Assembly (NCBI GenBank): GCA_045651985.1
Contig: JAZRTK010000020.1
Coordinates: forward strand, 717 to 64,716
Reading direction: 5' to 3'
Source: Eubacteriales bacterium
GTDB lineage: Bacteria > Bacillota > Clostridia > Oscillospirales > CAG-272
DNA length: 64,000 bases
Under the pieces are notes generated by a model. The model had not been told where the DNA came from and ran no database searches. It saw nothing but the letters and a program-made list of their open reading frames with translations. Shown in pieces: positions 5,805-63,588 of this stretch; position 1 is the stretch's first letter; every line of letters begins with the position of its first letter. A program made the position numbers and the translations under genes.

Positions 5805-7217
5805 TTATTTGTTTTCATTGTATTCTGTGTATATAGAGAGGGTTGTGCGCTTTTTTTCTCTTTCGGCTTTGACGCCGTCCCTCAGCGCCATATCGGGTAT
5901 CCACAGCACCCCTGCTTCATCGCACACAATGGGATAAGTTTTTCGCGCGTTAAGAGGAAGCTTTTTTTCTGACATGAGCTTCCGAACGTCACGAGAAAAT
6001 CCGCCCTTTTTGATTTTGTCGCCCGATCTGCGGGTGCGGCAGGAAAGCCGCCCTACAATTTTATCAGACGATAAAGTCACTTGTGTAAATAAGGTGTAAA
6101 TATTTTCCTGTGTCGGATGATTTTCCTGCGTAGATACGGCGAAATTTGTGTGAACGTGCAGAATATAACCGCCGGGGAGCGGATTTTCGCCCTCTGTCAG
6201 CGGGGTTTCGGAGATTTTCTCGTCCTTTTTCGTTTTGGGACGTGATTTTTTAAAAACGAGGCGGTCGAAATCTATAACCGCTTCAACTTCTCCCGGCAGT
6301 GAAACGGAGGAATGCGGCTTGCCGGCGAAAATGAGTGCGGAAAGCGCCTCGAAATGCACGTATTCGGGCATGGCGCCGCTGACTTTAGCCATCATTTTTG
6401 CAAGAACACGGCGCAAAAGAGCTCCGTGAAGGTTGCGGAGTCGCCCGATCTTGTTAAAATCGGGGTCGCTCATGTATTTTTCTGCCTCACCGTCAATAAA
6501 ATCGCAGTCGTCGGAAAGGAGGGACGAGAGGCGCGCGGCTGAAGTGTGGACAGACGGATTTATTTCCTTTAATTGAGGAATGACGTTCAGTCTTATTCGG
6601 TTTCTTGAATAAGAGTCGTCGGAATTTGTGCTGTCACAGACATATTTTATGTCAAGTTGACGGCATATATCAAGAATTTCTTCTTTTTTAATAGAAAGAA
6701 TTGGCCGCACAGCGACTTTACCTTCGCCCAGATCCCTTTTTTGCGGAATACCGCGCAATCCCTTTGCACCGCTTCCGCGAGTGAGACGGAAGATAAGCGT
6801 TTCCAGATTGTCGTCGGAGTTGTGGGCTGTGGCGAGGGCATCAATATTCTCTTTTTCCATAATTTCGCGGAAAAATTCGTATCTGACCTCTCTTGCCGTC
6901 TCCTCCAAGCCCTTTTTGCGCTTTTTTGCGAGAGCGGGCACGTCCGCGTCAAGCACGAAGCAATGGACTCCCAGCATTTTTGCGCTTTCATAGCAAAAAT
7001 CGCGGTCTCGCAGCGCTTCGCCGCCCCGAATGGAGTGGTTTACGTGGGCGGCGTAAAGCTTTACGCCGTTTTTTTTGCACCACTCGCAAAGCAGATTCAA
7101 AAGTAAGGAGGAATCCGCGCCGCCCGAATATGCCACAAGCAAGGAGCGGGGCATGCGTCCCAGAATCTTATCGGGGGTTTTAAAGCCTGTGATGCTCGAT
7201 AGATCAGTTCGGTGCAT
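5805..7217 (-). CDS. tilS: tRNA(Ile)-lysidine synthetase
   Basis: SGGADS PP-loop, AHNSDDNLET, RNRIR; ATG at 7217 with GGAGGG RBS inside the dnaB 3' end. Confidence 0.95.
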   Translation of the reverse strand: MHRTDLSSITGFKTPDKILGRMPRSLLVAYSGGADSSLLLNLLCEWCKKNGVKLYAAHVNHSIRGGEALRDRDFCYESAKMLGVHCFVLDADVPALAKKRKKGLEETAREVRYEFFREIMEKENIDALATAHNSDDNLETLIFRLTRGSGAKGLRGIPQKRDLGEGKVAVRPILSIKKEEILDICRQLDIKYVCDSTNSDDSYSRNRIRLNVIPQLKEINPSVHTSAARLSSLLSDDCDFIDGEAEKYMSDPDFNKIGRLRNLHGALLRRVLAKMMAKVSGAMPEYVHFEALSALIFAGKPHSSVSLPGEVEAVIDFDRLVFKKSRPKTKKDEKISETPLTEGENPLPGGYILHVHTNFAVSTQENHPTQENIYTLFTQVTLSSDKIVGRLSCRTRRSGDKIKKGGFSRDVRKLMSEKKLPLNARKTYPIVCDEAGVLWIPDMALRDGVKAEREKKRTTLSIYTEYNENK

Positions 7218-9086: not shown

Positions 9087-11177
9087 TTATTTCTTGTCGA
9101 TGTTGCGTTCAAAGTATTCGGTGATGTTGTCGTCGATCACGCGTCGGAACTGTTTTAAGGTCATATCGTCGGCAAAACCGCCTGCGTTGTTGAAATTACC
9201 GCCTCCAACGCCGCGCAAAAGCTGAGCGCAATCGACGATATTGTTGTTCGACCGTGCGCTTGCGTTAATTCTGCCGTTCCACTCTGCGATGACGATGGAA
9301 GCCAGCGCTCCGTTCATTGAAAGAAGCTGGTCGGCGACGCGTCCGATGACGATCTTTGTCTTGCTTTCGTCCTCAAGTCCCGTGCCCATGCAGACGGCGA
9401 TCCTGCCGTCCTGAACCAGCTGCAAACCTGCGCCGATGCGGTACTGCGCGTCAAAGGTCTCATAATCCGCTTCAAAGAAACGGCGTACCTTGTCAACCTT
9501 TGCCGAGCAAAGGCTTAAATATTCGGCTGCCGCGTAGGTCTTGCGGCTTGCGTACTGAGTAAAGTTCTTTGTATCAAGCATTATTCCTGCCAGCATAGCC
9601 GTCGCCTCGTCGGAGGAGAGCTTGCTGCGGCGGAGTCCTACGTCAAGGATCCCCGAAACCATCTCGCAGGCAGAGGACGAGGTAGTGTCGATGTACTCGT
9701 AGTCACATTCGGCGCTGTTTTCGTTCTTTTCGTGGTGGTCGAGAATTATTATCTTTCCGCCAAGGGTCTCGCGGAGAGTTTTGTAAAGATGGGTGCTTTC
9801 TACGTTGCGTGCGTTGTTTACGTCAACTATTATAAGCAGGGAATCGGTGCGTGCTTTTGAGAGTGCCTCCTGCTCGCAAATGAACATTCCGTCGTACTCG
9901 GGGGTGGAGACAAGCGACTCTGTGAGAGCGGAAAAATTTACGTCCGAGGGGTCGTTTATAATGATGTTTGTAGGTTTACCGAGCTCGCGCGTCAGTTTGG
10001 TCATACCGATAGCGGCTCCGATGCTGTCGTAGTCGGGGCGCGCGTGTCCCATTATAAAGACGTTGGAGCACTCGGAAATATATTTCTTGACGGTTCTCGC
10101 CACGCGGGGGTAGTCAAAGCTGTCGGTGCTTGCCTGCTTACGGCGGTCGCGGCCGTAGTCCTCAAAGCGTCCGTCGTGGTTTACGATGACCTTGTTTCCG
10201 CTCTTTCTCTGCTCAAAGGCAAGCTCCGCGTTGTGGAGTCGCTCGGAGAGGGTGCTCCCGCTGGCGGAAAATCCCATTGAAACGGTCAGCTCGTCGTCAC
10301 CGACGGTCAGCGCCTCGCGTATGGTGTCGAGAATGGGGAATTTCTCCTTCTCGCAGTCACGCATCGAAGCAAACGGAAGAATCGCGATGAACTTTCTCGT
10401 TTCGGGCTCGTACATGATGCCGCACTGCTGGTGTATCCACTCGGAAAGGAGCTCGCGCACCTTGTCGGCGGCTTGCTTTTCAGAAACGCCCGCAGCACCG
10501 GCAAAAGCCTTGAGGTCGTCGATCTCGATTCTGCCGACGGCGGCGGTCTCGTACTCAAGACGGCGTTTTAGGTCGTCTATGGTGTTCTTGTCGTCGGTGC
10601 AGTCGATAATGGTCGAAAGGTAATACGCACCCTTGAAAGAGTCTACGGGGTTCTTTTCGTCGCCGATGACGGTCTTTACCGAACGGATAGTCATGTAGCG
10701 GTTTGAGCCGTCGGGCATTTCGTGGCGGAAGGGTAACGTTTTTTCGACCGACTCGGCAATCTTTTCGGGGGTCAGGTTGCGGATAACGGCGGAGATCGCG
10801 GGGGCAGCTCCGGGCATTTTGCTGTTAAACAGTTTTTGCGCGGCGGGGTTGCATTTTACGATCACGCCGTCGTGGTTTGTGATAATGTAAGGGTATACCA
10901 TGCCGTCCAGCATGCGGCTGAAGCGGTGAAGGATTATCTCATTTCTGCTGTCCGAGCGCGCGCGAATGACAAGAAGGATTATTGCCAGCGCGTCAAGGAC
11001 GACCAGGGTGGCTGCCGATATCAGCACTGCCGTGGCAGGCTTCAGATCGGTCAGGAACAGAATAAGGAGCAAGATAACGAAGCTCAGCAGTCCCGCGCCA
11101 AGGCAAAGAGCAAAGGCGAGAGGGAAGTTAAAGAAGCTTTTCTTATTGCTTTTGTTTTGGGTGTTTTCGTTTGTCAT
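9087..11177 (-). CDS. gdpP: GdpP/YybT-like c-di-AMP phosphodiesterase (2 TM, PAS-like, degenerate GGDEF, DHH, DHHA1)
   Basis: GHARPDYDSIGA and ILDHH motifs; yybS-gdpP-rplI-dnaB synteny. Confidence 0.88.
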   Translation of the reverse strand: MTNENTQNKSNKKSFFNFPLAFALCLGAGLLSFVILLLILFLTDLKPATAVLISAATLVVLDALAIILLVIRARSDSRNEIILHRFSRMLDGMVYPYIITNHDGVIVKCNPAAQKLFNSKMPGAAPAISAVIRNLTPEKIAESVEKTLPFRHEMPDGSNRYMTIRSVKTVIGDEKNPVDSFKGAYYLSTIIDCTDDKNTIDDLKRRLEYETAAVGRIEIDDLKAFAGAAGVSEKQAADKVRELLSEWIHQQCGIMYEPETRKFIAILPFASMRDCEKEKFPILDTIREALTVGDDELTVSMGFSASGSTLSERLHNAELAFEQRKSGNKVIVNHDGRFEDYGRDRRKQASTDSFDYPRVARTVKKYISECSNVFIMGHARPDYDSIGAAIGMTKLTRELGKPTNIIINDPSDVNFSALTESLVSTPEYDGMFICEQEALSKARTDSLLIIVDVNNARNVESTHLYKTLRETLGGKIIILDHHEKNENSAECDYEYIDTTSSSACEMVSGILDVGLRRSKLSSDEATAMLAGIMLDTKNFTQYASRKTYAAAEYLSLCSAKVDKVRRFFEADYETFDAQYRIGAGLQLVQDGRIAVCMGTGLEDESKTKIVIGRVADQLLSMNGALASIVIAEWNGRINASARSNNNIVDCAQLLRGVGGGNFNNAGGFADDMTLKQFRRVIDDNITEYFERNIDKK

Positions 11178-50166: not shown

Positions 50167-51300
50167 GTGGTACGCTCGTTTAACGTAACAAAAAGGGAAC
50201 GGCTTAAAATGCTCGATCCTACAATAATTATCTGTACGGTCATTCTCAGCACCATGAGTATTCTGACCCTTGTGGGCGGATATGGAGAATTTCCCGACGT
50301 GACCGCAAGCAATCTTATAATTCAGGTGGGATCTGCCGTCGTCGGCGTCATCGCCATGATGATACTCTCTATGCTTGACTACGAGGAGATCGTGGAAAAG
50401 CTTTACGGCGCTTTCTTTATTATATCTGTGGCGCTGCTTGCGGTAACATTGCTTTTCGGAACGAGCATGGGAACGAACCTCAGTTACCTGCGAATCGGCC
50501 CCGTTGGAATTCAGCCCTCAGAGTTCGTAAAGGCTTCTTACGTTCTGACCTTTTCCCGCCATCTGGGCTACGCAAAGGAGAAGATAAATTCGCCCAAAAC
50601 CCTTTTAGGACTTGGATTGCACGCAGGAGTTATCATAGGTCTCGTGCTGATTTCCGGCGACCTTGGGGTTGCTCTGGTCTACATCGGGATCACTGCTATA
50701 ATGCTCTTTTGCGCGGGACTTAGCGTATGGTATTTTGCGGGCGCGCTTGTGGCGGTTGGACTTGCCTTTCCGTACATCTGGGAACGTCTTGACTACTACC
50801 AGCAGCAGAGAATTATAGTTGGATTTAACCCCGACCTTGACCCTGTCGTTTGGGGATACCAGCAGACCTGGGGCAGGCGTGCTGTTGCAAACGGCGGCGT
50901 TTGGGGCAGGGGGATGTTTAGCGGGGACTTCTATCAGATAACTCCTCATTCCGAGACCGACTTTATTTTCTCGACCTACTGCGAAAAATTCGGACTTGTG
51001 GGCGGAATATTGCTTTTTCTTACCATGGCGGTTCTGATCGTGCGTATTTTGTTCATCGCGGCGCGGGCTCGAAAGAGCTACGGACGGTTTATCTGCATCG
51101 GCGCGGCGTCGGTGCTTGTACTGCAGACCCTTGAAAACGCGGGAATGTGCATGGGCTTTTTGCCCGTTGTCGGAATCACGTTGCCGTTTATGAGCTACGG
51201 CGGCTCGTCCATGCTGGCGCTCTTTATTTTGATGGGAATGGTGCAAAGCGTCCGTTCACACCACGACAAATACTTCTTCGCCCGTACGTGGGAGGAGTGA
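50167..51300 (+). CDS. SEDS family protein (RodA/FtsW/SpoVE)
   Basis: IQPSEFVK, DLG, PHSETDFIFS, GITLPFMSYGGSS. Confidence 0.95.
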   Translation: MVRSFNVTKRERLKMLDPTIIICTVILSTMSILTLVGGYGEFPDVTASNLIIQVGSAVVGVIAMMILSMLDYEEIVEKLYGAFFIISVALLAVTLLFGTSMGTNLSYLRIGPVGIQPSEFVKASYVLTFSRHLGYAKEKINSPKTLLGLGLHAGVIIGLVLISGDLGVALVYIGITAIMLFCAGLSVWYFAGALVAVGLAFPYIWERLDYYQQQRIIVGFNPDLDPVVWGYQQTWGRRAVANGGVWGRGMFSGDFYQITPHSETDFIFSTYCEKFGLVGGILLFLTMAVLIVRILFIAARARKSYGRFICIGAASVLVLQTLENAGMCMGFLPVVGITLPFMSYGGSSMLALFILMGMVQSVRSHHDKYFFARTWEE

Positions 51301-51356
51301 AAAATAAAAATTGCGGCTTTTGCCGCAATTTTTTTGGAAAATTTTGAATATAACTA

Positions 51357-51385
51357 TTGCATTTGTCGCAGAAACGAAGTATAAT
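51357..51385 (+). promoter_or_regulatory. SigA promoter of the dual-HTH regulator
   Basis: TTGCAT-N17-TATAAT. Confidence 0.75.
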
Positions 51386-51444
51386 AAGATTACAGTTGTC
51401 GCAGCTGCGACGGATATAGCCATATATACGTCGTTTCGACGACA
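51364..51444. promoter_or_regulatory. Three 16-bp palindromic operator-like sites, TGTCG-N6-CGACA
   Basis: 51364-51379 TGTCGcagaaaCGAAG; 51397-51412 TGTCGcagctgCGACG; 51429-51444 CGTCGtttcgaCGACA. Confidence 0.65.
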
Positions 51445-51462
51445 GATAGGACGGTTGAAAGT

Positions 51463-52710
51463 ATGAAAATGATAACGGCGCAAGAAGCGGCACAAAAATG
51501 GGGTATTTCGCTCAGACGAGTGCAGGATTACTGCAAAAAGGGCAGGATCACGGGGGCTGAAAAATTCGGGCTGAACTGGATGATCCCCGAGGGCGCGCAG
51601 CGCCCTGCAGACGGACGCACGAGACAGGGCAGAGAGGGGCAGGCGGACAAGGTATCTGCCGATATGCCCATGCCCAGAAAAACTCCTTTCCTTTATATGA
51701 CCGACTTGTACCATACTCCGGGCGCGGCGGAGGAGAGCATTGCGGCTTTAGCTGATAACCCCGAGGCTCAGATACTTTTTGCCGCCGAGGTAGCATATTC
51801 AAGAGGTGAAATAGACAAGGTCTATGAAAGTGCCAACTATCTGCTTCAAAAGCACTCGGGATTTTATGCGGTCATAGCCGCGGGAATGTTGCTGGCGCTT
51901 TGCGCCATCTGGAAGGGCGACCTGAATATGTGGCGCCGCGCCAAAATGCATATTGCCGAGGTACCGGCGCAGACCGATGCTCAGCGGGACCTTGCCGTCT
52001 TTTCCATTACCGCCGTTGACAGTATGCTATATGACGTGGCGGGTTTCCCCGAATGGTTCAAGATCGGCTGTTTTGACCCGCTTCACCGCGACTCATTGCC
52101 TGCGGCAAAGGTCTTTTACGCAAAATATCTTTACGCGGCGGGATATGCCGTTGCAACAAAGGAAATAGAGATCGAGGGTATTCACGGCTTGTCGCTCCTT
52201 AAATTGCTCCCCGCGACCTTGGAGCCCATGATCTCACAGGCGGCGGCTGACAGTACGGTCATCGCCGAGATATATTTGCGCATGACGTGCGCGGTGGTCT
52301 ATCACACGGCAGGAAACGATACGCAGGCAGTCCGCCACATCGACCGTGCTATAGCCTTGGCTTTGCCCGATCGTCTTTACGGTCTGATCGCCGAATACCG
52401 CCGCACTCTCGGTGCGTTGCTTGACCGCAGGCTTATGCACGCAGGACCCGAGGTCTGCGAGCGGGTGTCGGCTCTGCACGTCGCATATAACGAAGGCTGG
52501 GCGAAGCTCAGCGGTGCCGCCAGAGGGCGCGTAATCTACACCACTCTTGCTCCCAAGGAGCGTGAGGTGGCAAAGCTTGCGGCGTTTGGCATGAAAAACG
52601 CCGAAATTGCCCAGAAGCTGCATATGTCCATCTCGGGCGTAAAGCAGGCGGTCACCAAGGTATCTCAGAAAACGGGTGTATCAAGAGAAGAATTCGCGGC
52701 TATACTGTGA
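51463..52710 (+). CDS. Regulator with N-terminal excisionase/MerR-like HTH, helical (TPR-like) core and C-terminal LuxR HTH
   Basis: TAQEAAQKWGISLRRVQDYCKKGRI..WMIP; LAPKEREVAKLAAFGMKNAEIAQKLHMS. Confidence 0.88.
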   Translation: MKMITAQEAAQKWGISLRRVQDYCKKGRITGAEKFGLNWMIPEGAQRPADGRTRQGREGQADKVSADMPMPRKTPFLYMTDLYHTPGAAEESIAALADNPEAQILFAAEVAYSRGEIDKVYESANYLLQKHSGFYAVIAAGMLLALCAIWKGDLNMWRRAKMHIAEVPAQTDAQRDLAVFSITAVDSMLYDVAGFPEWFKIGCFDPLHRDSLPAAKVFYAKYLYAAGYAVATKEIEIEGIHGLSLLKLLPATLEPMISQAAADSTVIAEIYLRMTCAVVYHTAGNDTQAVRHIDRAIALALPDRLYGLIAEYRRTLGALLDRRLMHAGPEVCERVSALHVAYNEGWAKLSGAARGRVIYTTLAPKEREVAKLAAFGMKNAEIAQKLHMSISGVKQAVTKVSQKTGVSREEFAAIL

Positions 52711-52845
52711 TGTCCTCTTTGTCCTGAAAAAGTACAGGAAAAAATGTCCCGAAAAGGCAATTTCGGGTAGTACACAAAAACGAAAAGATCTGCTATACTG
52801 TTCTCAGTCGAACGGCATAGCAGATTTTTTTTGAAAGGAGACACC

Positions 52846-53199
52846 ATGTTTACAAAAACGCTCAATTCGGGCAACGTCCCCATGCCGCGTGAAGGGGATC
52901 TGTATAAAAGGATAACGGTCTCGGGCAAGACCTTCGAGCTGTATTACGGTTATTATGAAGAGTTCGAGAGAGAATACAACGACCCGATACCGCTGTATCC
53001 CGATTTTTCCCGACAACCGTGTTACACCGATGACGGCGAACCGATTGTTACGGGAATGCAGGACCCCTGTCCGTATTATAATGGAAAGGAAAGCGGCGAC
53101 AGCTGTGCCTCCTGTAGGTTTTTTGAAAACCGCGAGGAGCTTTTCGGCATCTGCACCTGTCCGAAAAACAAAAAAGACGCGCAGGGTAACGACATATAA
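52846..53199 (+). CDS. Small Cys-rich hypothetical protein
   Basis: AAAGGAG RBS; FELYYGYYEE, PIPLYPDF, QDPCPYY, CASCRFF, GICTCP. Confidence 0.85.
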   Translation: MFTKTLNSGNVPMPREGDLYKRITVSGKTFELYYGYYEEFEREYNDPIPLYPDFSRQPCYTDDGEPIVTGMQDPCPYYNGKESGDSCASCRFFENREELFGICTCPKNKKDAQGNDI

Positions 53200-53246
53200 A
53201 AGTAAACCCCAAAATTCATATAAATGATTATAAAAGGAGAAAAATT

Positions 53247-56200
53247 ATGAAACAGACCAAAAAGCTTCTTGCCCTTTTAATGGCGGTTGCAATGATCCTC
53301 GTTTCGGTACCGTTTACAGGCGCGGTACAGACCGCTTCCGAGACGAGAAAGATGAATGACAACCAAGGCGACGGCATCATCCTCTACAAGGACGCCGTAC
53401 CTCACGTAGAAAACGGCACCCCCGACGGCACGGTGGATATTATAATCGAAGCCATGACCACAGGCGCTGTTACAAGCTCCCAGAGAGTTATTCCCACCGA
53501 CATCGTTCTCGTTCTCGACACATCCGGAAGTATGGATGAGATCGACTCGCACATGGTTGACACCTACAACGAGGTGCTGGGTACGAGCTTCACATATTGG
53601 TTTAACACCTACTACGGCTTTAACAACACAAACAACTATTACATTCTCGTTGACGGTGAGTATATACAAGTTTCCCGCTCCAACGCAGACGATAATAACT
53701 ACTATTATTACCGCTACCGCAACGGTCAGAGCTGGGTGTACGTTTACCCCGAGCTGAACGCAAGCATAGCGGCAAACAGAAGCGAGAATTATCCTGTTTA
53801 TCAGTTCTATAACAGAACGACAGGTTATCCCGCAGGCACCAAGACCAAGATGGAGCACCTTCAGGACGCGGTAAAGAACTTTATCGACCAGACCTTAGCC
53901 AGCAACGCAGGTATCGCAAACGATCGTGATAAGCACCGCATCTCTATCGTTAAGTTTGCAACCGACGCTTATTACAGCGGCTCGGGCTCTACTCAGGACG
54001 CAGGAAGCACCGCCGTTGGCAACAACTTTAACCGTGACGGATACAACTACACTCAGATAGTTGAGGAACTGACGACGGTCAATGCAGCGGGTGCCGCTTC
54101 TCTCAAGAGCGCGGTCGATTCTCTTGAGGCTGCGGGCGCTACCGCAATAGATTACGGTCTGGCGCTGGCAGAGCACGCCCTCTTTGACGACAGAACGGCG
54201 GCTGATATCGCAGGCCGTCACGAGATCGTGGTACTCTTTACAGACGGCTCTCCCACACATCAAAGCGGATATGATGCTTCTGTTGCGGCAGACGCCGTAA
54301 AAAACGCGGCGGCACTTAAGTCCGAGAACGTTGAGATATACACCATCAGCGTGGCGGCTAACGCGGACGCATCTCAGCTCGGCTCCGATCAGACAAACGC
54401 TTTCTGCCACTACGTTTCAAGCAATTATCCCAACGCTACCGCTTCGGGTAACAGTATAAATGCAGGCACGGGCGATCCCACGGCAGGCTATTACTGGGTT
54501 CCCGATGACGTTCTGACTCTTGACGCTATCTTTGAGTCGGTCCTTGACGCTGTTGGAACTCCCACCATCGAGCTTGGTGAGTCTGCGGCGGTCATCGACT
54601 CCCTGACACCTTATTTCACTCTCCCCGACGGAACAAATAACATCACTCTCCAAACGGTTGACAAGACCGCAACCGATTGGGGTACGCCCGTAGTTGATCC
54701 CTCTTTGACCGCTTCCGTTGTAGGAAGCCAGATAAAGGTAAGCGGATTTGATTTCGACGCAAACTACGTTTCCTCAACTCCCCGCGACAACGGCTTTTAC
54801 GGTAAGATGCTCCGCATCATAATCAACGTGACCCCCGATCTGGCAGTACTTGACGAAAGAGTAGACGCTATCGCGGCGTCAAACGGCTACGTTGAAACCA
54901 ACCTTGGCAACGCGGCGGTTCTGGACAGCACCCAGACCCCTGTGGCGGTAGTCGAGTCCCCCGGTATAACATTAAACAAGGTTACCTATAAGCTTGACGG
55001 TCAGGTGTACGATATTCAGTTCCGACTTCCCGGAACTGTTGACTCGGTTCTGCCAAAGCACGCAAACGACGACGTTGCAACCTACACCGATTGGACTACT
55101 TCCGACGTGACGGTCAGTGAGGGCAAATACACCATGCCCGACGGCGACGTTGTATTCAACGCAACGAGTACAAAGCTTGACTATACCGTACATTATGAAT
55201 ACAGAGGTACGGTCCCCGCAGGCGTTCCCGCACCTCCCGCTTCCGCCACCTACAAGACGGGAGACAAGGTGACGGTTGCCGCTGCTCCCGCGCTTACGGG
55301 CTACGTATTCTCGGGCTGGCAGGCAGCAGAGGTCGTGGTTGAAAACGGAGAGTTTGCAATGCCCTCCCGTAACGTGACTCTTATCGGTTCTTTTGCGCCT
55401 TCCAATACGGTCGCATACAAGGTCGAGCATTATTTCCAGGGCACAGACGGAGAGTTCCCCGCAGAGCCTTCCGATTTCCATTATCATTACGACGGAACAA
55501 CAGGTGAAAAGGCAACTGCTATCATCATGACGTATCCTCAGTTCACCTACGCAGATGCTGTGACCACACCCGCAGGACACACCTATACGTCTGTTCCCGA
55601 GGGCACAGTTGTATCTGACGGCTCTTTGGTTCTGAAGCTTTACTACGTTCGTAACGTTCATACCGTAACTTACAGATACGACGGCACAGTTCCCGCAAAC
55701 GCTCCCGAAGTTCCTGCAGTCAAGAGCTACCGCAACGGCGAGACAGTAACGCTGGCAGCAGTTCCCGCACTTGAGGGCTACACCTTTGTGGGCTGGTCCT
55801 CGGACGGGGCTGACGTTATTATCACCGACGGCAAGATCATGATGCCCGACCGCGACGTTATTCTCCACGGCTTCTTCCTTGAAAACGGTGATACAAAGTA
55901 TACGGTAGAGCACTATCTTGAAAGCGACACGAACGGTGTTTACGAGACTGCTCCCGCAAAGACGACGGAGCACACGGGCAAGACCAACGCCCCCGTTGTG
56001 GGCGAGCCCCTGAGCTTTGAGGGATATACTTACAACACAGAGTACAGCGCAGCTACGGCTTCGGGCAACATTCTCCCCGGCGGCGACCTTATTCTTAAGC
56101 TCTACTACGATAAGACCCCTTACAAGGTTTCTTATAAATATACGGGTGATATTCCCGCGGGTGCTCCCGCGCTTCCCGCCGAGACTACTCAGCACATGGG

Positions 56201-58478
56201 CGACGTGGTTGACGTGGCAGATCTGCCTACATTTGCAGGCTACACGTTCCACGGCTGGACGGTTGCTAACGTGACCGTATCGAACGGACAGTTTACTATG
56301 CCCGACGAGGACGTTGTATTTGTCGGTTACTTTGACAGAAACGAGGCGGCCTATACTATCTCCCACTACTTCCAGAACGAAAACGGCACTTGGGGCGATC
56401 CTCAGATCTCCTACAAGGTGGATTCTGTCGAGGGTGAGAGCGTAAGCGCTGATTACGTGACCGTTGACGGCTACGTAAATTACCCCGAGCACGCAGAAAC
56501 GCTTACAGCCGGCGTGGTTCTGGCTGACGGTTCTCTTGTACTCAAGTTCTTCTATAAGAGAACTGCCTTCAAGGTTACGTACGTTTACGATCAGCCTATT
56601 CCTGCAGGGGCTTCCGCGCTTCCCGCAGAGTCTACGCAGCTTCACGGTGCTACCGTAACGGTTGCTCCCGCGGCAACAGCTCTCGGGTACGAGTTCAGCG
56701 GCTGGACGTCTGAGAGTGTGACCATCGAGGGCGGCAAGTTCACGATGCCTCAGTCCGACGTTATCATAGTCGGACACTTCACGGCGACGACCGATACCCC
56801 TTGGAGAGTTGAGCACTACAAGCAGACTTTGGCGGGTACTTACAACAGCACTCCCGACGACGTGGATAATTTTGCGGGAATAACGGGCTATCGCGTATCC
56901 GCCGAGTACCGTCAATATGAGGGATTCACACCTGCCAAGAATAACGTTTTGGTAGGAACTATCACTCCCGCACCCGACATGCTTGTGATCAAGCTTTACT
57001 ACGAGAGAAATACCTATAACGTGACCTACCGCTATATCGGCGTTCAGCCCGAGGGCGCACCCGATATCGCAAAGTACAACATGACAAATGTGCCTTACGG
57101 TGCCACTGTCAACTTCGCGGCAAAGCCTGCCCTTGAAGGCTATGAATTTGAGGGCTGGACCTCTCATGAGGTAACTACGGCAGGCGCAAGCTTTACAATG
57201 CCCGCAATGGACGTTATCATTCTCGGTAAGTTCACGGAGAAGGCAAAGTACACCGTTATGTATCAGTACGAGGGTACAGTTCCCGCAAACGCTCCCGAGC
57301 TTCCTGCAGTTCAGTCTTATCTGCCTTCAAAGAGCGTAACGGTAGCGAACGTTCCAACTCTTGCAGGCTACACATTTGTTGGTTGGACCTCTGAGCAGGT
57401 CAACCCCGACGGCGGCAAGTTTGATATGCCTGCGCAGAACGTTCTCTTTACAGGCAAATTTGTTGAAAATGCACCTGTTGACACAAGCGGATATGCCGTT
57501 GTAAGCAAGCTTGTGGTCGCTCCTGCGGGCTTTAAGATCACGGCACCCTTTACGTTCCGTCTCCACCGTATCGACAATAACGCGGTAAGCGGTATTTACG
57601 AGGAATTTTACGTTGTTCCCGGTACACCCGCAGTTCTCGCTCTTGACCCGGGTAGGTATATGATCACCGAGATCGGCGGTGACATGAACGGATTTACACA
57701 CTCCGTATTCTGCAGTGTCAAAAACGGCATAATCGAGGTTGAGACGGGTAAGCGCACAAGCGTGATCTTTACCAACACGTACGTTGCGGTACAGCTTGAA
57801 AAGGACGATCACTTCGGTTACATCATCGGTTACCCCGACGGAACCGTAAGACCCGAGTACAATATCACCCGTGCCGAGGTCGCGACCATCTTCTTCCGTA
57901 TGCTCAAAGAGGAGAGTCGTAATAAGCTTTGGTCCACGACCAACACGTTCTCCGACGTTTCAAAGGGCAACTGGTTCAATACCGCTATCTCCACTCTCCA
58001 GAACGCAGGCGTTCTTGACGGATATTCCGACGGAACCTTCCGCCCCAATGCATACATTACAAGAGCCGAGCTTGTTAAGATCGCGGCTACCTTCTACGGA
58101 ACGGCGGCAGGAATGCAGTCGCACTTCTCCGACACCTCCTCTCACTGGGCAAACGATTTCATCGAGGCTGCACGCGAGCTTGGAATCGTTGACGGTTACA
58201 CAGACGGATCCTTCCGTCCTAACCGGTATGTGACAAGAGCCGAGGCTATGAAGATCATCAACCGTACTCTTGACAGAGTTCCTCATAAGGATCACCTGCT
58301 TCCTAACATGATCAAGTGGGTTGACAACAGCAATAAGAACAAGTGGTACTACGCAGACGTTCAGGAAGCTACCAACTCTCATATTTATATCCGTGACGAG
58401 GAGTTTGAGAGATGGGTGAGAATACTTCCCGTACGGGACTGGGCAGCACTTGAGTTGGGCTGGAGTAAAGAACACTGA
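53247..58478 (+). CDS. Large SLH-anchored surface adhesin (vWA domain + repeated beta-sandwich stalk + SLH)
   Basis: Signal peptide; LVLDTSGSM MIDAS and LFTDG; repeats GYxFxGW..FxMP..V alternating with YxVEHY..LKLYY; IGYPDGTVRP..ITRAEVA SLH motifs. Confidence 0.92.
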   Translation: MKQTKKLLALLMAVAMILVSVPFTGAVQTASETRKMNDNQGDGIILYKDAVPHVENGTPDGTVDIIIEAMTTGAVTSSQRVIPTDIVLVLDTSGSMDEIDSHMVDTYNEVLGTSFTYWFNTYYGFNNTNNYYILVDGEYIQVSRSNADDNNYYYYRYRNGQSWVYVYPELNASIAANRSENYPVYQFYNRTTGYPAGTKTKMEHLQDAVKNFIDQTLASNAGIANDRDKHRISIVKFATDAYYSGSGSTQDAGSTAVGNNFNRDGYNYTQIVEELTTVNAAGAASLKSAVDSLEAAGATAIDYGLALAEHALFDDRTAADIAGRHEIVVLFTDGSPTHQSGYDASVAADAVKNAAALKSENVEIYTISVAANADASQLGSDQTNAFCHYVSSNYPNATASGNSINAGTGDPTAGYYWVPDDVLTLDAIFESVLDAVGTPTIELGESAAVIDSLTPYFTLPDGTNNITLQTVDKTATDWGTPVVDPSLTASVVGSQIKVSGFDFDANYVSSTPRDNGFYGKMLRIIINVTPDLAVLDERVDAIAASNGYVETNLGNAAVLDSTQTPVAVVESPGITLNKVTYKLDGQVYDIQFRLPGTVDSVLPKHANDDVATYTDWTTSDVTVSEGKYTMPDGDVVFNATSTKLDYTVHYEYRGTVPAGVPAPPASATYKTGDKVTVAAAPALTGYVFSGWQAAEVVVENGEFAMPSRNVTLIGSFAPSNTVAYKVEHYFQGTDGEFPAEPSDFHYHYDGTTGEKATAIIMTYPQFTYADAVTTPAGHTYTSVPEGTVVSDGSLVLKLYYVRNVHTVTYRYDGTVPANAPEVPAVKSYRNGETVTLAAVPALEGYTFVGWSSDGADVIITDGKIMMPDRDVILHGFFLENGDTKYTVEHYLESDTNGVYETAPAKTTEHTGKTNAPVVGEPLSFEGYTYNTEYSAATASGNILPGGDLILKLYYDKTPYKVSYKYTGDIPAGAPALPAETTQHMGDVVDVADLPTFAGYTFHGWTVANVTVSNGQFTMPDEDVVFVGYFDRNEAAYTISHYFQNENGTWGDPQISYKVDSVEGESVSADYVTVDGYVNYPEHAETLTAGVVLADGSLVLKFFYKRTAFKVTYVYDQPIPAGASALPAESTQLHGATVTVAPAATALGYEFSGWTSESVTIEGGKFTMPQSDVIIVGHFTATTDTPWRVEHYKQTLAGTYNSTPDDVDNFAGITGYRVSAEYRQYEGFTPAKNNVLVGTITPAPDMLVIKLYYERNTYNVTYRYIGVQPEGAPDIAKYNMTNVPYGATVNFAAKPALEGYEFEGWTSHEVTTAGASFTMPAMDVIILGKFTEKAKYTVMYQYEGTVPANAPELPAVQSYLPSKSVTVANVPTLAGYTFVGWTSEQVNPDGGKFDMPAQNVLFTGKFVENAPVDTSGYAVVSKLVVAPAGFKITAPFTFRLHRIDNNAVSGIYEEFYVVPGTPAVLALDPGRYMITEIGGDMNGFTHSVFCSVKNGIIEVETGKRTSVIFTNTYVAVQLEKDDHFGYIIGYPDGTVRPEYNITRAEVATIFFRMLKEESRNKLWSTTNTFSDVSKGNWFNTAISTLQNAGVLDGYSDGTFRPNAYITRAELVKIAATFYGTAAGMQSHFSDTSSHWANDFIEAARELGIVDGYTDGSFRPNRYVTRAEAMKIINRTLDRVPHKDHLLPNMIKWVDNSNKNKWYYADVQEATNSHIYIRDEEFERWVRILPVRDWAALELGWSKEH

Positions 58479-58629
58479 TAAAACTCCGAAGGGACCGCTT
58501 CTTTTGAAGCGGTCCCGCATTTTGAAAACAAGACAGGGTTTTGGGCGTGTTTTGGTTGACTGTGTGAAATTTTTGTGGTATTATACAGGGGAATGGGATT
58601 TTGATACTGCAAAAGAGAGGTGAATTTCC

Positions 58630-59501: not shown

Positions 59502-59879
59502 ATGAAAAGTATAAAACCCGGACGCGGTCCTTCAATGATGGGCGGTGTTATTGGAATATTTATGATAGGTTTCGGTGTCGTATGGACCGTTCTGGCATCA
59601 CAGGCCAGCGGGATTTTTGCTCTGTTCGGGGTGTTCTGGACGGGTATGGCAATAGCTATGACGGTGTATAATTTCAAGAATGCCACGGGCAAGAACCGCT
59701 ATTCCGCATACGACATTACCGATGGGCACGAGGAGCCCGATCCGCTCAATGAGATTTTTGGTACTCAGAGTGCAGAGGCGAAAAAGGGCGAGACGGAGAA
59801 CAAGTTCTGCCCGTATTGCGGAACGCCTTTGGCTCGGGATTTTGAATTTTGCAATAATTGCGGCAAGAAGCTGCCGTAA
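59502..59879 (+). CDS. Membrane protein with C-terminal zinc ribbon
   Basis: Two TM segments; FCPYCG..FCNNCG. Confidence 0.88.
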   Translation: MKSIKPGRGPSMMGGVIGIFMIGFGVVWTVLASQASGIFALFGVFWTGMAIAMTVYNFKNATGKNRYSAYDITDGHEEPDPLNEIFGTQSAEAKKGETENKFCPYCGTPLARDFEFCNNCGKKLP

Positions 59880-60010: not shown

Positions 60011-60046
60011 AAAAAAAGAGGAATGGTAAACCATTCCTCTTTTTTT
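60011..60046. terminator. Bidirectional terminator at the tRNA-Val 3' end
   Basis: AAAAAAAGAGGAATGG-TAAA-CCATTCCTCTTTTTTT. Confidence 0.9.
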
Positions 60047-60122
60047 GGTGGAAACAGCTGGATTCGAACCAGCGACCCCTTGCATGTCAAGCAAGTACTC
60101 TAACCATCTGAGCTATGCTTCC
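60046..60122 (-). tRNA. tRNA-Val (GAC)
   Basis: 77 nt GGAAGCA...TGTTTCC-ACCA; anticodon loop TTGACAT. Confidence 0.97.
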
Positions 60123-62337: not shown

Positions 62338-62964
62338 ATGAAGATTAATGCTGAATCGGGAGAAATTTCTGATGTTTTAAGAGCGAAAAATTTAAGAGAC
62401 TTGTTGGATAAATTCAAAATAGAGTACGGAGAAATATCAAAACAACTAGATGATATAATAAAAAAACTTGACGATTTAAGAAAGGAAAAACGCAAATACG
62501 ATCAAAAGAAAAAGTTAGTCAACAAAAGGTATAGTGAGTTAGTGCAGGCTGATAGATTCTCTTTTGGTTTGCAAGAAATTGATGTGGATAGATTTGCCAG
62601 CATAGATATATCATTTGAAGCTGGAGGAAGCAATAAACCAATAGCTACTGTAATATGGTATTTTAATTTGTTGAGATTGAAAAATGAATTCAATCCTAAC
62701 AGCATAAAATTCCCGCTTGTTTTGGATAGCCCCAACAATGTGGAGCTTGATGACGGAAAAAGGCAAGAACTGTTCGAATACTTGTTTGAAAATGTAGATG
62801 CAAACACTCAGTTAATCGTATCAACATTAGGTTTTTCCAAAGATGATTATCCAGATGCTGAAATAAGTAATATAGTAGAGTTAAAGAATCCCAAATATTC
62901 GTTATTAAATAGTGAGGATTACGAGCAAAATTTGGATGTTTTAGTTTTGTGTGACGAACTATAA
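62338..62964 (+). pseudogene. C-terminal fragment of an SMC/Rad50-like ABC ATPase (ABC-three-component/Lamassu LmuB-like)
   Basis: Coiled coil, then GGSN signature-like, FPLVLDSP Walker B and QLIVST; no Walker A, no clear RBS; very AT-rich. Confidence 0.6.
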
Positions 62965-63071: not shown

Positions 63072-63326
63072 ATGATACTGCAAGCATTGAAAAACATGTA
63101 TCCGAAAGCGAGCGAGAAGGTGCTCAAGGCGGTCATGAAGGATCTCGAAAAATGCCGTGGAAAGAATATGAGCACCGAGGAACTCGCGGATTGGATAGGG
63201 AAGCTCGTAACAGCACACACCATTCAAGAAGCATTAAAAATAATAGAGGACGATTCAGAACCGAGTCAAGTCGGTGATGAGTCGTCCTTTGCTATTACGG
63301 AGGTGGGCAATGAAGCAAACAATTGA
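63072..63326 (+). CDS. Hypothetical protein
   Basis: GGAGGT RBS; overlaps the next gene. Confidence 0.7.
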   Translation: MILQALKNMYPKASEKVLKAVMKDLEKCRGKNMSTEELADWIGKLVTAHTIQEALKIIEDDSEPSQVGDESSFAITEVGNEANN

Positions 63327-63588
63327 AGAACTGTGGCACGGAAACATCATACCGCAAGAGGACAGCCGAAATAACTCGCCGGAGATGAAGGAACTGTTCA
63401 GTTACATGGCAAGGCATCACAAGGACTTGGAGAAAAGCTTCACAGACGAGCAGAAAGAAATCTTCGAGAAGTTCCATGATTGTTGGAGCGAATACATGAG
63501 CCTTGCAGAAAAGGCGATCTTCGTATATGCCTTCAAACTCGGTGGAAGATTGATGCTTGAAACGCTATTAGAGCAACGCAAAAATTGA
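63310..63588 (+). CDS. DUF6809-like small protein
   Basis: IEELWHGNIIP..FVYAFKLGGRLMLE; GGAGGT RBS. Confidence 0.75.
   Translation: MKQTIEELWHGNIIPQEDSRNNSPEMKELFSYMARHHKDLEKSFTDEQKEIFEKFHDCWSEYMSLAEKAIFVYAFKLGGRLMLETLLEQRKN

Follow-up and report, generated by a model that had tools for sequence, protein, structure and literature searches.

A candidate two-promoter cassette pairing a LuxR-type regulator with a small cysteine-rich protein ahead of surface-protein genes in Clostridia

The 64,000-nucleotide stretch of DNA analysed here, which we call the window (positions 717 to 64,716 of the forward strand of contig JAZRTK010000020.1, from the Eubacteriales bacterium assembly GCA_045651985.1), carries three consecutive plus-strand genes coding for a 415-residue regulator (51463-52710, from the open reading frame (ORF) listing), a small acidic Cys-rich protein of 117 residues (52846-53199) and a surface protein of 1743 residues (53247-58478). 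We propose, with moderate confidence, that they represent a portable two-promoter cassette, in which an autoregulated activator and a partner acting as anti-activator or antirepressor control one adjacent gene for a secreted or surface protein, called the cargo below. The original prediction, made from the letters of this DNA, had described a three-gene module bounded by two terminators. The sequence confirms its layout, its domains and its Cys motifs, as well as the hairpin on either flank, but the module would form two transcription units instead of one, split by a predicted internal terminator overlapping a promoter. This third hairpin, located between the regulator gene and the small gene, had gone unmentioned, as had the extended -10 in its 5' arm, the conserved dyad ahead of it and the palindromes at the regulator promoter.

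The start of the small gene had been listed at TTG 52831, inside a T-run; the true start is ATG 52846, with AGGAG (52836-52840) 5 nt before it, and the resulting protein of 117 residues is identical to a record of the protein collection (P0001). The cargo ORF begins 47 nt past the small gene, and no hairpin followed by a T-run was seen by eye in this gap. In the genome of origin (1.53 Mb in 52 contigs, 96.7% complete), each cassette gene is present as a single copy.

A conserved gene pair ahead of interchangeable cargo

A survey of 150 further genomes from this family found regulator homologs of full length (46-66% identity) at 15 places in 13 genomes, and strong matches to the small protein at 14 places in 12 genomes, each time directly downstream of one of these regulators. 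Seen from the other side, the small gene directly follows 14 of the 15 full-length regulators, and for the fifteenth (genome G121) the contig ends after the first codons of the small gene. The two genomes of the same genus contain only unrelated proteins that have the N-terminal helix-turn-helix (HTH) in common with the regulator, and no small protein; different genes follow ftsW and the cassette is absent, which fits either a gain or a loss.

A profile of the small protein retrieved 132 relatives in species-representative genomes, and the best 80 of these 132 constitute the loci from metagenome-assembled genomes (MAGs) used below. They are labelled as Oscillospiraceae, Acutalibacteraceae, Faecousia, Candidatus Fimenecus and unclassified Eubacteriales and Clostridia, and many come from the gut of goat, sheep and deer. 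Of the 75 MAG loci that could be assessed (those with at least 1.6 kb of room), 70 have a regulator, recognized by its hidden Markov model (HMM), as the immediate upstream neighbour on the same strand, a count in which related genomes are non-independent samples. More broadly, the family of the small protein comprises 226 representative clusters at E <=1e-3, its members being ~45-80% identical, and of the 8000 proteins scored in the regulator search 2795 lay at E <=1e-10, with a length of 404-454 residues for all of the best 120. Every source name of the regulator and small-protein relatives shown is 'hypothetical protein'.

The large protein of the window has a signal-peptide-like N-terminus and a DTSGS MIDAS-like motif. 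Pfam recognizes a VWA domain at residues 209-383 (36.8 bits, cut-off 23.8), three stretches of SLH (120.4 bits, cut-off 20.8), four of Flg_new (106.6 bits, cut-off 27) and six of Flg_new_2 (134.8 bits, cut-off 23.6), so that this secreted, SLH-anchored protein with VWA and Listeria-Bacteroides repeats is, as judged from its sequence, a wall-anchored adhesin-type protein. Elsewhere the gene behind the pair is different. ORFs could be called downstream of the small gene in 73 loci and fall into 25 clusters by single-linkage BLAST; they begin at a median distance of 44 nt past the stop of the small gene, with at most 120 nt in 61 of the 73 and some overlaps. A signal-peptide-like N-terminus was recognized by a crude custom rule in 66 of the 73, and 42 of them encode at least 1000 residues, up to 3056. 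Pfam scanning of 13 cargos from the family genomes and of 22 representatives revealed unrelated architectures: VWA with Flg_new and SLH; FctA isopeptide repeats (pilin-like) with DUF7601 and VWA_2; DUF11 with FctA; GLUG; LRR_5 with or without DUF285; Cthe_2159; and long coiled coils with MBG. Many cargo proteins have no Pfam family. Two downstream ORFs are probably not cargo: L128 has an alkyl sulfatase there, after a gap of 494 nt, and L126 a LuxE. Because the cargo varies in this way, the conserved unit is the regulator with the small protein, and the gene behind them is interchangeable. The co-occurrence of the pair upstream of varied large secreted proteins, which the original prediction had set as a test, is therefore borne out. 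Its view of a switch for an adhesin was partly right: the cargo is often large and secreted, but it is not always an adhesin or a giant protein, since lipoproteins of ~330 residues and membrane proteins of ~160 residues recur in several loci.

One recurrent lipoprotein-like cargo (L067, L068, L072, L074, L077, L082, L084, L085, L090, L098, L106 and L124) has a conserved N-terminus, with a signal peptide, a Cys and a CEHTYDNACDA-type motif, and a length of 218-728 residues; the two members scanned (L067 and L084) gave no Pfam family.

The regulator, its acidic partner and their predicted complex

The regulator contains, as had been described, two HTH of different classes. Its C-terminus matches GerE/LuxR (PF00196, residues 361-407) at 26.8 bits, above the Pfam cut-off of 23.5, and Sigma70_r4_2 (residues 361-398) at 27.1 bits (cut-off 25.7). 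At the N-terminus, HTH_17 (PF12728, residues 4-43) reaches 25.2 bits with E 2e-5, slightly below its cut-off of 27; PF12728 has precomputed matches in many homologs of 65-76% identity, and the PHROGs excisionase family phrog_2655 covers residues 2-58 with E 1.6e-7. The lack of a receiver and of a Walker A motif also holds: Pfam and NCBIfam return no receiver or NTPase family, Response_reg has no Pfam match, the sequence contains no GxxxxGK[ST], and NCBIfam response-regulator models align just with residues ~350-412, at 15-26 bits versus cut-offs of 250-300.

The AlphaFold2 (AF2) model of the regulator, based on a 38-sequence alignment, has a predicted local distance difference test score (pLDDT) of 87.4 and a predicted template-modelling score (pTM) of 0.71, and agrees with the helical core announced between the two HTH. 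It comprises a winged HTH (~1-45), a disordered linker (~50-66, with pLDDT below 50 at 53-66), a superhelix resembling tetratricopeptide repeats (TPR; ~67-355) and a NarL/LuxR-type HTH (~358-415). The N-terminal domain has the topology strand-helix-helix-strand-strand (E3-5, H6-13, H17-25, E33-35, E38-42; pLDDT 85-88). The C-terminal four-helix domain superposes on the DNA-binding domain of NarL (1je8_A; Z 10.2, root-mean-square deviation (rmsd) 1.6 over 58 residues, 36% identity) and on LiaR (4wul_B; Z 10.2, rmsd 1.1 over 57 residues). For the core, the structural matches are APC subunits (Z 13), Rap 4gyo_B (11.8), NprR 4gpk_C (11.6), phage Rap 8rsv_B (11.4), MalT domain III 1hz4 (11.2) and RapF 4i9c_A (11.1), with AimR also within Z 11-12. 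We call this core TPR-like without naming a specific family, because Z values of this range are common among helical repeats, a caution of the alignment tool itself, and Foldseek E-values are 3e-3 at best. As a side observation, the N-terminal excisionase-like HTH (residues ~1-60, at 40-55% identity) also heads many frames of ~300, 470, 620 and 740 residues in genomes of the same family and, going by their sequences, is a widely reused module there.

The small protein has Cys residues at positions 59, 75 (in DPCPYY), 87 and 90 (CASC), and 103 and 105 (CTC). In 29 aligned members C75, C87, C90 and C103 are invariant and C105 is kept in at least 90%, with the spacing C75-x11-C87-x2-C90-x12-C103-x-C105; the N-terminal motif EG.LY...F...YG.Y is also invariant. 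These members are acidic, with a median pI of 4.9 and a median net charge of -7. The N-terminus is not hydrophobic and no signal peptide is present. The AF2 model (pLDDT 89.8, pTM 0.77) is mostly beta. No family match was found in Pfam, NCBIfam, PHROGs or PADLOC, and the ESM Atlas returned just 'hypothetical protein' clusters. Among PDB structures, the best Foldseek E-value was 1.2, and VIA-align of the model versus 48,161 chains reached at best Z 3.0, for CorC_HlyC domains over 51 residues; these model-based searches found no known fold, which falls short of proving a new one. A profile search of PDB sequences matched just bL36 chains (E 0.38-0.96) at profile positions ~85-117, the CxxC-x12-C stretch, and this similarity is a lead towards a zinc-ribbon-like site. 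The four invariant Cys suggest that the small protein may bind metal; a putative Cys4 site would probably hold Zn, and a metal or redox input is possible.

Several variants of the small protein were seen. P0249, P0254, P0274 and P0270 form a divergent subfamily with a C-terminal extension of ~100 residues, and P0270 also has a 200-residue N-terminal region resembling, by eye, a sigma-4/LuxR-type HTH; Pfam gave nothing for these four at E <=1e-3, so the extra N- or C-terminal regions of P0270 and its relatives have no Pfam family. In P0223, probably a merged gene call, the small domain comes after a GerE domain. In L103 (3558-10478, plus strand), a single locus of the 80, the small Cys domain is joined in frame to a giant ORF of 2306 residues through a Lys/Ser/Asp-rich linker followed by the hydrophobic segment VKVAVWVLIAALLFTSAVATIGLI; it could be a membrane-tethered form or reflect a lost stop codon. 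The homologs L037:1897-2202 (minus strand, genome G124) and L047:3217-3531 (plus strand, genome G104) have one internal stop each (TAA and TAG, respectively) and may be decaying copies or result from alignment run-over.

Modelling of the complex between the two proteins, suggested in the original prediction, supports their pairing versus controls. Co-folding gave an ipSAE of 0.68 (0.69, 0.65 and 0.68 in the runs) and 0.00 for all three controls, a value which is the model's own confidence. Solved complexes reached this mark in 116 of 157 cases and mismatched pairs in 2 of 215, a calibration that is only approximate here, custom alignments having been used. The runs have at least 57% of their contacts in common, with a partner pLDDT of at least 80. 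As the small protein has no PDB relative, it is unlikely that the model passed through memory of a solved complex. On the regulator, the predicted interface comprises residues 365, 379, 386-389, 391-392, 394-399, 401-402 and 407-409; on the small protein, 37-52, 70-72, 84-90, 96 and 100 in alignment numbering, which is the 117-residue numbering plus 1. The contact segment of the small protein, YYEEFEREYNDPIPLY, contains five acidic residues and one basic residue. On the regulator, the interface is the LuxR-type recognition helix, which lies in the part matched structurally to the DNA-binding domain of NarL. The model thus supports binding of the small protein to the LuxR-type domain and, because this helix superposes on DNA-binding domains of NarL and LiaR from entries solved with DNA, the bound protein and DNA would compete.

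These predictions change one part of the original proposal, that of a co-regulator: the position of the modelled interface points to an antagonist, either anti-activator or antirepressor. The opposite view, in which the small protein acts positively, as co-regulator or sensor subunit, and the complex is the active species that binds DNA or contacts RNA polymerase, appears improbable to us. It accounts equally for the pairing and for the predicted binding, four invariant Cys would suit a sensing metal site, and WhiB-like proteins bind the region-4 HTH of sigma factors and act positively. However, the predicted contact falls on the recognition helix itself (386-402), so that DNA would compete for it, and the partner is strongly acidic, as a competitor of DNA would be.

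Two predicted promoters and a terminator stem

Upstream of the regulator gene lies a promoter, P_reg (51357-51385, plus strand), read in the sequence as TTGCAT (51357-51362), a 17-nt spacer and TATAAT (51380-51385); the consensus promoter scanner did not list it. Its spacer contains a half-palindromic stretch, TGTCGCAG...ACGA. Just past the -10, a perfect 14-bp palindrome, GTCGCAGCTGCGAC (51398-51411), is a candidate autoregulatory operator, O1, and a second candidate operator, O2 (51429-51443), consists of the palindrome CGTCGTTTCGACG (51429-51441) followed by AC. A promoter of the type TTGnnn-N16-18-TATAAT was found by regular expression in 64 of 71 regulator upstream regions, six further loci being skipped when the anchor motif failed. 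Most of these 71 loci have two or three palindromes of 14-16 bp in the P_reg spacer or just downstream, which hold their position but vary in sequence, with types including TTCGC-N4-GCGAA, GTCGC-N4-GCGAC, TTCGTT-N2-AACGAA, TAGCG-N6-CGCTA, CAGCG-N6-CGCTG and TGCGG-N4-CCGCA. Location inside the untranscribed spacer argues for operators acting at the DNA level over hairpins of the 5' untranslated region. In some clades the palindrome type tracks the sequence of the LuxR recognition helix; all 10 loci with the helix SESTVKQTVL(R/K)VVQKTG, for instance, have palindromes of the TTCGTT..AACGAA type. The 5/6-N4-5/6 layout presumably resembles that of the ComA box of Bacillus subtilis. A count of GTCGY-N5-RCGAC in the own genome (11 forward versus 7 in the control) is uninformative, the window palindromes having N4 and N3.

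The second promoter is embedded in an element of ~108 nt between the regulator and small genes (window 52726-52834), which we aligned for 50 loci picked by a hairpin finder. The consensus is AAAAATATGACCnAAAAAAnnnnTTTTnGGTAATACC, an A-rich spacer, ATCTGCTATACTGTT-loop-ACAGTATGGCAGAT and a T-run. Its first part is a dyad, IR1 (52746-52774), with arms CCCGAAA (52748-52754) and TTTCGGG (52761-52767) followed by TAGTACA. IR1 played no part in the selection of the loci; pairing is seen in 71.8% of its cells, and 8 of its 11 pairs vary on both sides. Further on, the scanner called a promoter, P_cargo (52771-52799, plus strand), with a poor -35 (TACACA), a 17-nt spacer and the -10 TATACT (52794-52799) preceded by TG (52791-52792). 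In the 50 loci, the T, the A and the final T of this -10 are invariant and the other three positions nearly so. Overlapping it is the predicted internal terminator (52788-52832, plus strand), a hairpin at 52788-52825 with a run of eight T at 52825-52832, of -25.4 kcal/mol and z -7.3. The 5' arm of its stem is the extended -10 TGnTATACT and is conserved in sequence, as is the T-run. Compensatory substitutions are seen at 11 of the 14 pairs of the stem, and 93.8% of its cells are paired, a figure inflated by the choice of loci with a hairpin finder. Pair 82-109 is, on the sense strand, U.G in 30 and U-A in 19 of the 50 sequences, and this wobble and an unpaired A coincide precisely with positions at which the -10 hexamer requires its T and A. 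Our reading of these sequences is that one stem would serve both as the terminator of the regulator transcript and as the extended -10 of the cargo promoter.

As a check less affected by this choice of loci, a covariance model built from the alignment, with matches counted at E <=0.01, found the element on the sense strand in 71 of the 80 MAG loci, including 22 of 31 on which it had not been trained. It also matched 14 of the 15 family-genome loci, 13 of 14 being independent of training once L040, on the same contig as the training locus L076, is set aside. Scores on the sense strand are roughly double those on the antisense strand. The own genome of 1.53 Mb contains the element a single time, and the 12-mer of the -10 arm has one exact copy there, the cassette itself, and one-mismatch copies number 5+1 versus 3+1 in the control; with a single exact arm, the regulon looks local. 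A scan of 51200-53400 with Rfam at E up to 1 found no family; its two matches, both sub-threshold and due to chance, were BSnc120, at the terminator of ftsW, and mir-513, antisense to the hairpin. In L113, where the regulator gene is split, the element (7041-7147) stays beside it and the small gene (9950-10312) is ~3 kb further on, which suggests an insertion.

The same hairpin could be explained by one operon with an attenuator, with no internal promoter: transcripts from P_reg would be subject to regulated read-through and IR1 would be an alternative or anti-terminator structure. The sense-strand hairpin and T-run directly before the small gene in most loci speak for it, as do the folding of IR1 as RNA, weak as it is (-10.2 kcal/mol, z -2.9), and the retention of the hairpin in L105, where the regulator gene cannot be its target. 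We nonetheless find it quite improbable, given that RNA pairing alone would neither demand a 5' arm conserved as TGnTATACT nor put up with the U.G pair and the unpaired A by which the hexamer is kept, that IR1 and the terminator arms do not overlap in a way suggesting alternative pairing (only the terminator helix is predicted), and that there is no Rfam family match. To our knowledge, HTH proteins are not known as antiterminators.

At the outer borders of the cassette, the left intrinsic terminator (51306-51336, plus strand) is that of the upstream ftsW/rodA-type gene, a scanner match of -16.7 kcal/mol with the stem ATTGCGGC/GCCGCAAT and a T-run. After the cargo gene, a hairpin (58491-58516, plus strand; -24.1 kcal/mol, z -5.6) has the arms GGGACCGCTTC/GAAGCGGTCCC with only a short ATTTT tract behind, and was not called by the consensus terminator scanner.

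A proposed feedback cassette and its relation to known systems

We propose that the two promoters define two units. Unit 1 would be the regulator gene, transcribed from a strong, near-consensus sigma-A promoter and limiting itself through the locus-specific palindromes of the 5-N4-5 type, candidate operators whose most likely reader is a dimer of the LuxR-type HTH. The regulator transcript would end at the conserved intrinsic terminator. Unit 2 would begin inside this terminator, at a promoter with an extended -10, no usable -35 and a dyad upstream, a layout suggesting dependence on an activator; it is this position that makes IR1 a plausible activator site. The regulator would turn on P_cargo via IR1, possibly through its conserved N-terminal winged HTH. 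Transcripts starting at P_cargo would lack the 5' arm of the stem and would not terminate and, with read-through from unit 1 blocked, cargo expression would depend on the second promoter alone. Unit 2 would encode first the small Cys4 protein and then the cargo, and the small protein, by capping the LuxR-type recognition helix in competition with DNA, would feed the output of the cargo operon back onto the regulator. Positive feedback, possibly bistable, would follow if the LuxR-type domain sits on the autoregulatory palindromes, and negative feedback if it sits on the dyad. In this scheme we infer the assignment of HTH to sites, the sign of the feedback, metal binding and a signal sensed by the TPR-like core. 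This core may serve to bind a ligand or a peptide or to form oligomers, and the Cys4 site may hold a structural Zn or be a sensor of redox state or metal. The earlier idea that each HTH reads a different operator is consistent with two conserved dyad classes, one per promoter; assigning either dyad to either HTH goes beyond these data. A fuller version, which we offer as a tentative possibility, is a non-genetic ON/OFF switch: the LuxR HTH would repress P_reg at clade-specific palindromes and the winged HTH activate P_cargo, while a Zn- or redox-responsive Cys4 DNA mimic of novel fold would strip the LuxR-type domain off its operators, closing a positive loop for bistable adhesin expression tunable by O2 or metal.

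A number of observations weigh against the proposed cassette, besides the inflated pairing figure and the nature of the ipSAE value given above. Five of the 75 assessable loci have no adjacent regulator: none was found in L072 and L121, it lies on the opposite strand in L105, and it is ~3 kb away in L078 and L113, split in the latter. In L105 the hairpin and T-run before the small gene persist, so that ending the regulator transcript cannot be the sole role of the hairpin. The covariance model has no match in 9 of the 80 MAG loci and in 1 of the 15 family loci. One recognition helix, SLSVVKQAVRIV, pairs with two palindrome types, TAGCG-N6-CGCTA and TTCGC-N4-GCGAA, which makes the assignment of helices to operators loose. 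Finally, both the start within the hairpin and the termination at the T-run are predictions.

It is very unlikely, in our opinion, that the small protein serves the cargo as a cytoplasmic chaperone, targeting or maturation factor and that its contact with the regulator is a modelling artefact: its gene is always the first of the cargo operon, sometimes translationally coupled, and L103 has it fused in frame to the downstream 2306-residue ORF, but the protein stays ~45-80% identical in front of 25 unrelated cargo clusters (from membrane proteins of ~160 residues to adhesins of 3000), it tracks the regulator and not any cargo type, the complex controls are all 0.00, and no longer fused forms were found at E <=1e-5, which is weak evidence.

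Several known systems resemble parts of the proposed cassette. In the MalT/LAL regulators of the STAND class, a TPR-like helical region likewise precedes a C-terminal LuxR/GerE HTH; MalT domain III (1hz4) fits the regulator core with an rmsd of 4.4 over 234 residues, and one regulator homolog has a precomputed match to PF17874, which we take to be the MalT-type TPR family. They differ by an NTPase/NOD domain with a Walker A motif, absent here, and by their length (~900 versus 415 residues), and, unlike them, the present regulator carries an additional winged HTH of the excisionase-like type at its N-terminus and has a small gene as obligate partner. NarL-family response regulators differ by a receiver with a phospho-acceptor Asp, which the regulator lacks. 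The RRNPP proteins (Rap, NprR, PlcR, AimR) likewise combine an N-terminal HTH with a TPR superhelix and have a small gene immediately downstream. The likeness of the core to Rap, NprR and AimR (Z 11-12) is, however, no better than that to APC subunits (Z 13); the HTH here is of the excisionase/MerR type and is accompanied by a second, LuxR-type HTH; and the RRNPP partner is a secreted pro-peptide, whereas here it is a folded, presumably cytoplasmic Cys protein of 117 residues without a signal peptide.

Small partners that act on HTH domains are another point of comparison. TraM is an anti-activator of the LuxR-type DNA-binding domain of TraR. In the RapF-ComA complex, a partner protein is reported to sit on the DNA-binding surface of a LuxR/NarL-type HTH (PMC3246441). 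Compared with these two cases, the small protein is unrelated, mostly beta, with four Cys and no PDB match, it is encoded in the regulated operon, and the HTH that it would target shares its chain with a fused, Rap-like TPR domain. CarS of Myxococcus xanthus is reported to be a small antirepressor, rich in beta structure, which imitates operator DNA and so ties up the helix with which the repressor recognizes DNA (PMC2926617). RapF on ComA and CarS on CarA/CarH thus follow the logic of an acidic protein placed over a recognition helix, as modelled here. Fold searches of the PDB and profile searches detected no sequence or fold likeness between CarS and the small protein. CarS is acidic, has no Cys cluster, and targets a MerR-type winged helix, not a LuxR HTH. 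Anti-sigma factors of the ZAS type, such as RsrA, and WhiB-like proteins are small Cys-rich partners of sigma region 4 that depend on Zn or Fe-S, their metal site serving as a redox input. The likeness lies in the combination of a Cys-rich protein with an HTH of the sigma-4/LuxR clan, the C-terminus of the regulator being above the Sigma70_r4_2 cut-off. The ZAS signature HxxxCxxC is absent, with GKESGDS before CASC and no conserved His four residues ahead in the 29 members; the WhiB pattern, C-x(14-22)-C-x2-C-x5-C, is likewise missing, and there is no Pfam Whib match. By analogy with such systems, the pair would work like a regulator with its anti-activator, a known kind of system. As far as our searches reach, what is undescribed is the combination of winged HTH, TPR and LuxR HTH in 415 residues, the family and fold of the partner, the promoter within a terminator and the plug-in cargo. 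We found no description of the pair in the full-text literature searched and no match in Pfam, NCBIfam, PHROGs, PADLOC or the PDB, in agreement with the original prediction, which did not recognize it as a described system.

Two other readings were considered and rejected. The excisionase-like HTH prompted that of a mobile element; the flanks in the window encode housekeeping proteins (proS, ftsW/rodA-type and YitT-type), and the related loci were not all scanned for recombinases. For a defence system, PADLOC matched just the C-terminal HTH region of the regulator to CARF3 models, plus a weak N-terminal mad1. Further along the window, positions 59502-59879 encode a membrane protein of 125 residues that ends in a zinc ribbon (Zn_Ribbon_1, E 2e-8), and a tRNA-Val(GAC) lies on the minus strand at 60046-60122, just downstream of the neighbours of the cassette. 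Between 62000 and 63600 the G+C content is 0.36-0.39, versus ~0.50 around; this stretch, with ORFs at 62338-62964 (208 residues, Lys/Glu-rich), 63072-63326 and 63274-63588, may be foreign DNA.

Uncultured gut Clostridia (Oscillospiraceae, Acutalibacteraceae and relatives) meet their host, fibre or neighbouring cells mainly through giant surface proteins and adhesins, and almost nothing is known of how these proteins are controlled. The proposed cassette would provide a defined and testable control logic in front of dozens of unrelated cargos, made of one regulator, one antagonist and two compact promoters, of which the second, built into a terminator stem, would insulate two adjacent units within ~110 bp. 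The small protein may offer, as modelled, a new fold aimed at the LuxR-type recognition helix, and the whole could be a compact heterologous switch for the engineering of anaerobes. For the organisms themselves, the presence of the cassette could predict which of their surface proteins are conditionally displayed.

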